Shown one piece after another: positions 41,858 through 43,596 of a stretch of DNA of 64,000 nt. This DNA comes from Girardia tigrina (taxonomy: Eukaryota), in contig MQRK01227159.1 of assembly GCA_001938485.1 (NCBI GenBank), positions 1 through 64,000 on the forward strand. The letters run 5' to 3'. A program made the translations under genes and the position numbers. Each line of letters starts with the position of its first letter. Position 1 is the first letter of the stretch. The notes beneath the pieces are model-generated. The model had not been told where the DNA came from and ran no database searches. It saw nothing but the letters and a program-made list of their open reading frames with translations.

Positions 41858-43596
41858 TGTTGTTGTGTCTCAGCAGAGGCTTTTTCGGTTTCTTCGCCAA
41901 GAATAGCTGACCACCAACAAATTCCCGGAGCACGTGCCCATACGATTGATCTCATCTGTAGTTCCGTCGATATGTCATCACAGAATCGCAGGAATGATCG
42001 ATTTGTATCTAATCTATAACAACTGTCACCTTTAACCCGATTTTTGTCACTCTCATTATCGATCGTGGATTTGACAGTCGATTTATTTTGCAGACACACA
42101 TTTGGTGCCATCATTTTTAATTCATTCTCCAAACTCTCGCTTTTCAACGTTTTAATATCGATAGTTTTGGGATTACGACAGACGAGTACGAGAGAAAATT
42201 TATTAGAACAGACATAGCAGTCCTTAACTGGCGGAAACGGTTCAACTGCCTGGACAATTCTGCCTCGCGCAGACACAAAGTCAGAAACCAATACATCATA
42301 ACATTTCTCCGACTGAACTTCGAATAACTTAATGATTTTAAATTGTTCATCGGTTATTATCGAAAACTTTAAACATTGAAATAATTTCACGGCCAAATTT
42401 TTGACAACTCGATAAATGATATTCGCATTTAAATCGACATCGATCTCGTCCATATCGCAGAAAATCGATTTCTTGACCAAATAGCCGTCTTTAATATCGA
42501 AATGTACGATTACCATTGGAGAATTTCTTTCGATCTTGTCTATTTGGCTGACTACCTCAAAATTAATTCGATTGACTTTTCTATTCAATAAAATCGCAAC
42601 TTGATGAGCTCCACTCAATTTCCAAATGAATATTCACACGCCTATATCGATTTTGTTACTGAAATCTATGACTTTTTGAGCCTGATTGTGCATGTTATCA
42701 TTAGAAAAAGATTGAAATGGTCTTTTATTATCTTTCGGTTTATTGAAATTATTATTTTTATTATCGTCACTTTTAAAATTAATAATATTTTTTATTTTAT
42801 TCGGTCGATTTATGAAGTCGTTATCGCGACTGAAGTACGCTTGTAACGAGTCTCGTTTGAATACTCGGCTCAAAACAGTCGGGTTAAAATCATCGTGTTT
42901 CGCGTCAATATTCACATCGGGATTAAACTTTAAGACACTTTTTTTGCGGTCAAAGCTTTCAATTTACCTAAACGCTTTTTTCGAAACAAAAACTGTCTGT
43001 TTAAATTACTCACATCAATTGTGTCTAAATCGGGCACAGTTATGTTTTTGAAGTGCTACATTACAAGACGTTTTAGCAATTCATATCCGATACCGCCCGC
43101 TCCAACGACATTACTTCTTTCAACAGTATTCATTCTTTCAAATGGATATATATTTTTTTAAAATTAAATCGAGCAAAAACAAAAATTGTTTATTTCTATT
43201 TTTATCAACATTATTTTTCATTACAGAGAAATCGCCAATTGAATTATTTATTAAATTGAAAAATTGACCACTTTTGGTATTCCAGAGAAATTGTGTCAAC
43301 TTTCACTAACACACAGACACTCATACACTTAACACGCACACTCATTCTCGATTGGGTAAAAAAATCCAACGAGAATCAATATTTCTCACGGGCATATACA
43401 CCAATGACGCACACATTCATTGGTACACACACTTCAGTGAATTCAAATTCCAATCACAAATTATAAACAATGGAATCTTTGTTTAAATAGATAAAATTTG
43501 AAAAACACAAATTTCAAATATAAACCCAAAACACCGAAAATGTTAAATCAATTAATTGTTCTATTTGATTTGAATTCGAGAATTAACAATTTGAAC
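41858..43596 (-). pseudogene. UBA2: Chimeric insert: UBA2/SAE2 N- and C-terminal pieces, unknown segments and a PWWP fragment
   Basis: 43133-42880: VVGAGGIGYELLK...[33 protein letters not shown] (one stop); ~42300-42090: PPVKDCYVCS...MMAPNV; ~41950-41890: SIVWARAPGICWWSAI. Confidence 0.8.

Follow-up and report, generated by a model that had tools for sequence, protein, structure and literature searches.

Introduction

Several described systems move pieces of host genes or leave short units with defined ends. LTR-mediated retrocopies consist of partial mRNA pieces from several parents, have switch points in common among copies and undergo secondary copying (PMC5131818). Solo LTRs are curated by their TG…CA termini and a 4-6 bp duplication with no internal repeat, and Helitrons are marked by a 5′ TC, a 3′ CTRR and insertion between A and T with no duplication (PMC8969392). 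Ty1 integrase, when overexpressed, inserts non-Ty DNA that ends TG-CA and gives rise to 5-bp duplications (PMC2939329). Among DNA transposons, 370 Pack-TIRs have been counted in 100 genomes, and the capture of gene fragments at high density, for which plants offer ample documentation, is reported to be rare in animals (PMC8277862).

The locus considered here lies in a window of 64,000 nucleotides of Girardia tigrina DNA (contig MQRK01227159.1, positions 1 to 64,000 of the forward strand). A preliminary description of this window had pointed to a same-sense fusion of UBA2 pieces, unrelated coding-like DNA and a PWWP fragment, possibly one member of a class of inserts. The analysis below concerns that mosaic, its relatives in protein collections and three inserts of the same build in the window. 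The class of four is a more interesting result than the single mosaic.

The host gene and its introns

The window consists of animal DNA that is rich in AT and interrupted by scaffold gaps. A PH-domain protein, which we take to be RasGRF-like, is encoded on the plus strand by GT-AG exons near 16.6, 16.9, 17.2, 35.3, 49.3 and 52.0 kb. The mosaic, called I3 here, is about 1.7 kb long and lies in an intron of this gene, on the strand opposite to it, between the exon that encodes the end of the PH domain (35254..35450, plus strand, placed by Pfam and splice sites) and the likely next exon (49276..49351, plus strand, placed by its AG…GT splice signals). With the exons at 16635-17230 and about 52020-52085, the introns reach up to 18 kb, and the gene is host to all four inserts. 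Relics of mariner, Tc1-like, hAT, FLYWCH and Penelope-like elements fill the introns.

Other repeats were observed in the same DNA. A decayed family of about 450 bp is represented by six copies (about 3710-4157, 10389-10826, 12590-13126, 17606-17788, 32576-32957 and 41180-41650) with 68-79% identity and no terminal inverted repeat seen, and a young 290-bp MITE occurs twice (40273-40560 and 60301-60589; 94% identical, with perfect TIRs of 22-24 bp). A Penelope-like element at 53016-54700 has a 205-bp duplication (95%) around a zinc-finger frame (53353-54393), and a similar zinc-finger piece and end are found at 1322-1950. The stretch 62467-63360 is a non-autonomous hAT; it has a frame for a dimerisation domain (Pfam E 2e-18) and subterminal repeats in arrays.

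Architecture of the mosaic

I3 occupies 41858..43596 on the minus strand, as delimited by homology, a GC step and comparison of the flanks; its high-coordinate end is at 43588 or 43596. Read along the minus strand, the order is a leader, an N-terminal UBA2 piece, two coding segments (A and B), the second CxxC and UFD start of UBA2, a linker (Y) and a PWWP-like start. The leader (43134..43596) is about 460 bp of AT-rich non-coding DNA with GT-rich runs, at most a candidate promoter or UTR, and it stops at an ATG aligned with Met1 of P0005, a UBA2 protein of full structure. The adenylation piece that follows (42892..43133) corresponds to P0005 residues 1-83. Pfam ThiF matches it at E 1.5e-9 and 62 of the 79 residues compared are identical to P0005, in agreement with the UBA2 N-terminus first noticed here. 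Its lesions are a TAG at 43058-43056, where P0005 has Trp, the loss of 1 bp from an A-run near 42941 and a 2-codon deletion. The second UBA2 piece (42064..42333, about residues 336-416 of P0005) matches human SAE2 at E 7e-4 and is identical to P0004 and P0006 at 45-49 of 73 residues; here too the original assignment, to the CxxC/UFD start, holds.

What lies between these two parts in UBA2 is missing. Residues of about 85-335 of P0005, among them those of the first CxxC (at 147) and of the CTIRNTP motif, whose cysteine (162) is presumably the catalytic one of UBA2, have no match in I3, and the absence of the catalytic core is borne out. Compared with UBA2/SAE2, I3 thus has the N-terminal adenylation part and the second CxxC/UFD start in common, and it lacks four things that UBA2 requires: the first CxxC, the catalytic-cysteine domain, a whole UFD and an open frame. 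I3 cannot encode a working SUMO E1. A working UBA2 paralog can be rejected, as the core is absent, the UFD is cut, and stops and a frameshift break the frame. It is also unlikely that the true UBA2 has the mosaic structure (a refutation that the preliminary description had allowed for), since the closest UBA2 proteins in the collection searched show the normal domain order. The mosaic is real and it is dead.

The stretch between the UBA2 pieces had been described as about 600 bp of Asn/Lys-rich, coding-like DNA. It is coding-like, 558 bp long and shares the reading frame of the rest, and the Asn/Lys richness is confined to its first part. That part, segment A (42637..42891, minus strand), has 85 open codons (1 of 2000 shuffles was open) and no Pfam or NCBIfam match. 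Segment B (42334..42633, minus strand) is preceded by a TGA at 42636-42634 and has 100 open codons (0 of 2000 shuffles); its last 40 codons are also in P0003, and about the last 10 in P0013. An Atlas search gave no match for segment B, a structural model reached a pLDDT of 43 and the best fold comparison a Z of 4.5, all of which are uninformative; a suspected likeness of segment B to VPS13 was not confirmed. Observed over expected CpG is 1.2-2.4 in the I3 pieces, 0.9-1.5 in three host exons and 0.5-0.7 in two transposon relics. Because segments A and B are open far beyond shuffles and CpG-rich like host exons, both are likely to be host coding pieces, although the profile, Atlas and fold searches turned up no donor.

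The mosaic ends with linker Y (41965..42063, minus strand, 33 open codons), which is common to P0003 and P0013, and with the PWWP-like start (41860..41964, minus strand, 35 codons, cut at the insert end), which is common to P0003, P0013 and P0007. The latter has no Pfam PWWP match, and P0007 matches the PWWP domain of DNMT3B at E 0.04-1.8. Its nearest Atlas clusters are PWWP at 0.83, under the Atlas threshold of 0.9, and although 10 of the 10 best matches belong to one family, shuffled proteins often attain 0.83. The tail of P0013 had no PDB sequence match, and its model (pLDDT 51) gave no fold match. A PWWP identity for the last piece of I3 may be treated as a lead only. Of the proposed fusion of several genes, UBA2 stands as a certain donor, and PWWP, the sole further donor that has been assigned, is this lead. 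As a separate observation, the linker and PWWP-like start (41860-42030; residues 148-184 of P0013) align weakly with UBA2's own first CxxC and catalytic region. The alignment scores about -1 bit, which is not significant, and the resemblance is likely due to chance, the divergence being too great for the same capture.

Relatives of the mosaic

A protein search at the level of 50% clusters returned ten matches: P0003, three close UBA2 proteins, P0007, three distant UBA2 proteins (P0008-P0010) and two proteins (P0011 and P0012) that were dropped as repeat-protein noise. The relatives of the mosaic are predicted proteins from short contigs and are known as protein sequences alone. P0003 matches at 88% over the end of segment B, the UBA2 piece, the linker and the PWWP-like part. 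P0013, its cluster mate, has a different N-terminus. In P0007 only the PWWP-like part is common, and the sequence upstream of it differs. Further copies of the mosaic, for which the preliminary description had suggested a search, are thus represented by P0003 and P0013, which contain the same internal junctions (three or four in common with the window copy). That the segments are independent insertions is unlikely, because the pieces travel jointly in P0003 and P0013 and share one frame.

Compared with two UBA2 outgroups, the three mosaics (the window copy, P0003 and P0013) carry 8 common derived residues and therefore descend from one capture. Across 167 aligned residues, the first 5 informative sites of the window copy agree with P0003 and the last 14 with P0013 (2 runs, p 2e-4). 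This two-run pattern could reflect recombination between copies, or chimeric metagenome assembly. The mosaic is likely to be multi-copy, because three public proteins carry parts of it with other neighbours, one of them with the recombinant pattern. The similarity of all relatives to the window ends at about 41860. P0003 and P0013 extend for 37 common residues beyond the end of the window copy, apparently as more PWWP, and this extension ends in what we take to be a motif like the third PWWP strand; P0007 continues otherwise. After residue 96, P0007 may continue the PWWP-like domain in a shifted frame, and the upstream part of P0007 may be the natural donor context of that piece.

Searches for loci found no mosaic in metagenome, viral or prokaryote collections, and no loci of the three sister inserts or of the window's hAT piece in viral contigs. 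A search of longer proteins with P0002 found nothing among 936 candidates and is weak, as it also missed the known relative P0005. None of 10 window ORFs was found in the protein collection, and there was no match in Rfam.

As noticed early on, all pieces of I3 are on one strand, which is the minus strand, and a single frame runs through them: after correction of the single 1-bp deletion, all five coding pieces are in frame with each other. Two stops and this deletion now interrupt the frame. The chance of one frame for five pieces is 1 in 81 if frames are random, or 1 in 27 if a common donor supplied A and B. The common frame, together with the open frames of P0003 and P0013, is what would be expected if I3 were a dead copy of a once functional, lineage-specific family of chimeric genes that combined UBA2 pieces with a chromatin reader. 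The frame is no proof of selection, however, because codon periodicity could favour in-frame joints, and predicted proteins are pre-selected for open frames. Moreover, 6 of the 50 N-piece sites common to P0005 and Caenorhabditis UBA2 are altered, in P0003 and P0013 the PWWP-like motif no longer has its Trp pair intact, and the partners vary among relatives. A functional chimeric gene is highly improbable.

Ends and flanks

At the low-coordinate end of I3, homology is lost at about 41860, and GC steps from 0.30 to 0.50 at 41858, where a TG begins. Two sets of boundaries can be drawn. With 41859-43596, the flanks are ATTCT and TTTCT and join in frame at the junction, and there is no TG…CA. With 41858-43588, the ends are TGTT…AACA, the flanks are ATTC and ATTT, and the frame is shifted. 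The duplication matches at 4 of 5 or at 3 of 4 positions. A match of 4 of 5 has a chance of 0.04 at fixed positions and of 0.55 with free boundaries, and on the latter figure the ATTCT/TTTCT duplication that had been proposed is not established. No exact TG…CA with a duplication was found for I3, and three candidates with one mismatch are at chance level.

The same holds for the idea that the insert interrupts a hAT remnant. The left flank (41760..41857, plus strand) and right flank (43597..43700, plus strand) are possibly decayed hAT transposase, on motifs that were recognised by eye and that need frameshifts; in 24 flank frames, with the two flanks searched separately, Pfam gave 0 relevant matches. 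More decayed transposase-like frames adjoin I3 at 43830-44730 and 45400-46960, with no informative Pfam match.

No terminal inverted repeat or long direct repeat was found at the ends of I3 and no TIR at those of I1 (one of the sister inserts described below); I3 has no poly(A) tail, and a Helitron CTRR was not found at its homology end. Three known routes can be rejected. First, Helitron capture lacks its CTRR end here, and the sister inserts have 5-bp duplications. Second, a LINE-type retrocopy should show 5′ truncation and an intact 3′ end; I3 shows the opposite (the 5′ start is kept and the 3′ end is cut), and it has no tail. Third, a Pack-TIR with ends of its own is at odds with the absence of TIRs at I3 and I1, and with relatives that occur without the window's downstream flank.

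Degenerate ends, and relatives that extend further, would suit an I3 that is the remnant of a larger gene-capturing element, or else filler in a break of an old hAT (a gap-filled Pack-TIR), in which case the sister inserts would be a separate matter. Gap filling inside TIR elements is described as common in animals (PMC8277862). I3 nevertheless matches three clean-ended inserts in build, strand and CpG-rich composition, and its flanks join in frame at one of the two sets of boundaries, so that a remnant or filler is very unlikely.

Sister inserts

The window contains 11 gap-free stop-to-stop frames of at least 150 codons. Four of these are CpG-rich (observed over expected 1.48-1.55), and all four are on the minus strand; one is that of I3, and the other three lie in inserts called I1, I2 and I4. 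I1 (21428..22235, minus strand, 808 bp) has TG…CA ends, a duplication of ACGCT and a 209-codon frame that runs to its end, and it splits a mariner that retains its TIRs. Once I1 and one copy of the duplication are removed, the mariner frame is open again through the HDNARPH motif. I4 (54697..55723, minus strand, 1027 bp, TG…CA, duplication CAGAG, 200-codon frame) splits a frame that is presumably Penelope-like, and its removal restores one open frame. I2 (31475..32511, minus strand, 1037 bp, TG…CA, duplication GCACA, 198-codon frame to the end) begins on the left at 31475, where GC steps from 0.16 to 0.50 (chance about 0.013), and its empty site gave no match to a host element. Since pairs of TG…CA ends and 5-bp repeats are common by chance (790 in a blind scan of the window, 26 of them with a long frame up to an end), the evidence for I1 and I4 is their restored host frames and that for I2 its GC step. 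Candidate inserts near 12 kb and 58 kb had no TG…CA duplication.

The four inserts have a common build: an AT-rich leader of 180-455 bp is followed by a CpG-rich frame of 198-258 codons that reaches the end (within 2 nt in three inserts and 23 nt in I4). All four, with all captured frames, have the same sense, which is antisense to the host gene. All three sisters have TG…CA termini and a perfect 5-bp duplication. The base that precedes the duplication is A in the three sisters and in I3, and therefore the three sisters can equally be read as having a 6-bp duplication and TG…C ends. AATAAA is absent from the last third (minus strand) of three of the four inserts. No clear sequence is common to the four: of 12 comparisons, 10 were within the null, and the other two (43 vs 42 and 45 vs 38) were small AT-rich matches. 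I1 has a 77-residue block (64 identical) in common with P0017, whose neighbours differ on both sides of the block, and I1 is thus also a mosaic; no support was found for a suspected likeness of the block to NUP88. On composition, the frames of I1, I2 and I4 are candidates for host origin. Both the junctions that recur in relatives and the three inserts of the same build uphold the view that the same-sense mosaic belongs to a class of inserts.

Origin of the inserts

Taken together, these inserts suggest that a retrotransposon integrase has likely scattered shuffled host-gene fragments through the genome. The preferred explanation, held tentatively and at slightly under an even chance, is that the inserts are solo-LTR-like units of LTR retrotransposons that carry host mRNA pieces gained by template switching. 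Reverse transcriptase would have switched between the RNA of the element and host mRNAs packaged with it, so that UBA2 and other pieces were joined on in sense; serial capture of DNA, the other route named in the preliminary description, may also have joined them. The chimera would then have been propagated in non-autonomous form and have recombined with sister copies, integrase would have inserted it with a 5-bp duplication, and recombination between two repeats would have left one. Decay of the I3 copy would have come afterwards.

All three sisters show the features by which solo LTRs are curated, and restoration of the split transposon frames confirms two of them (I1 and I4). Intronic LTRs are biased to the antisense orientation. 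Uninterrupted coding stretches are 250-630 bp long, as against about 75-200 bp for host exons, which would weakly fit an RNA stage. Other observations count against solo LTRs. The ends of I3 are degenerate, and relatives continue for 37 residues past its end, which a true LTR end should not allow. With no common sequence among the four inserts, the solo-LTR reading also needs four separate families. The lack of AATAAA in the last third of three inserts and the equal fit of a 6-bp duplication count against it as well. As for the retrotransposon itself, the window showed neither a second repeat nor gag, pol, a primer site or a purine tract, and no retrotransposon sequence flanking the cargo was recognised, a non-coding LTR being unrecognisable without a repeat library.

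A single mechanism could cover four unrelated sequences that agree only in TG…CA and a 5-bp duplication if integrase inserted cargo without LTRs, that is, linear DNA or cDNA (the 5′ parts of host or chimeric transcripts) ending in TG…CA, which was then copied and reshuffled. This would also explain frames that run off the ends and relatives that continue past the end, and Ty1 integrase provides a precedent. The points against solo LTRs agree better with such an integrase. However, the precedent is known only under overexpression in yeast, and the same report argues that compartmentation normally prevents such insertion (PMC2939329). Multi-copy mosaics would need a separate source, and solo LTRs are the ordinary explanation for such ends. 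LTR-less cargo is rather unlikely as the origin of the inserts. Similarly doubtful is element-free domain shuffling, in which abundant inserts of 0.8-1.7 kb (four in 64 kb), composed almost entirely of reshuffled host coding pieces in frame, would be placed by a retroviral-type integrase needing only TG…CA, an animal counterpart of Pack-MULEs without a carrier.

Transposases of the Ginger/TDD-like kind are also of integrase type, and non-autonomous DNA transposons with very short ends could have picked up gene fragments from the genome together with the leader, in the manner of Pack-MULEs. The leaders of 180-460 bp, with their (TA)n or GT runs, resemble genomic upstream DNA, I1 has an imperfect inverted end of 12-13 bp, and lengths of 0.8-1.7 kb are within the size range given for Pack-MULEs (PMC6431247). 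Against this, terminal inverted repeats are absent from I3 and I1, TGT…ACA ends are absent from I2 and I4, and the ends differ between inserts. Short-ended transposons are quite unlikely.

If the window is typical, four inserts per 64 kb would amount to very many per genome. They would then supply new domain fusions, false gene models and, more speculatively, small RNAs that match housekeeping genes. If the units have no parent LTR element, the use of element-free DNA by integrase, seen so far under overexpression in yeast, would be a natural process.

Comparison with known systems

The literature searched gave no description of such an insert class or of a UBA2-PWWP mosaic; the class may be catalogued in repeat libraries or in subscription papers. 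Insertion by Ty1 integrase has the same need for TG…CA and the same 5-bp duplication, but it is artificial, and the report describes no natural genome-wide class (PMC2939329). Pack-MULEs and Pack-TIRs are mosaics of 1-2 kb drawn from several genes and, as I3 probably is, multi-copy (PMC8277862, PMC6431247), and two or three of the present inserts lie inside older transposons. The present inserts differ in that no TIRs accompany the cargo, the duplication is 5 bp and not 9-10 bp, and the split transposons lost no sequence. The Burro giant gypsy elements of planarians are LTR elements with host-like domains of the ubiquitin pathway; their domains lie in a long intact polyprotein, whereas the units here are small and decayed (PMC6431247).

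The closest likenesses are to products of LTR elements. Solo LTRs have in common with the three sisters the TG…CA termini, the 5-bp duplication and the lack of internal repeats (PMC8969392). Here, in contrast, units of 0.8-1.7 kb contain a frame of 200-260 codons that reaches the end and is host-derived in at least one case, and no full element was seen. LTR-mediated chimeric retrocopies (Tan et al., 2016, PMC5131818, where maize Bs1 is also cited) have partial pieces in the same sense, common switch points and amplification, as does the mosaic, and they draw on several parents, as the mosaic may. Their cargo lies between recognisable retrotransposon sequences (PMC5131818), whereas none was recognised here and the TG…CA unit is mostly gene-like. 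I3 appears to work like an LTR-mediated chimeric retrocopy and is a candidate for that class.
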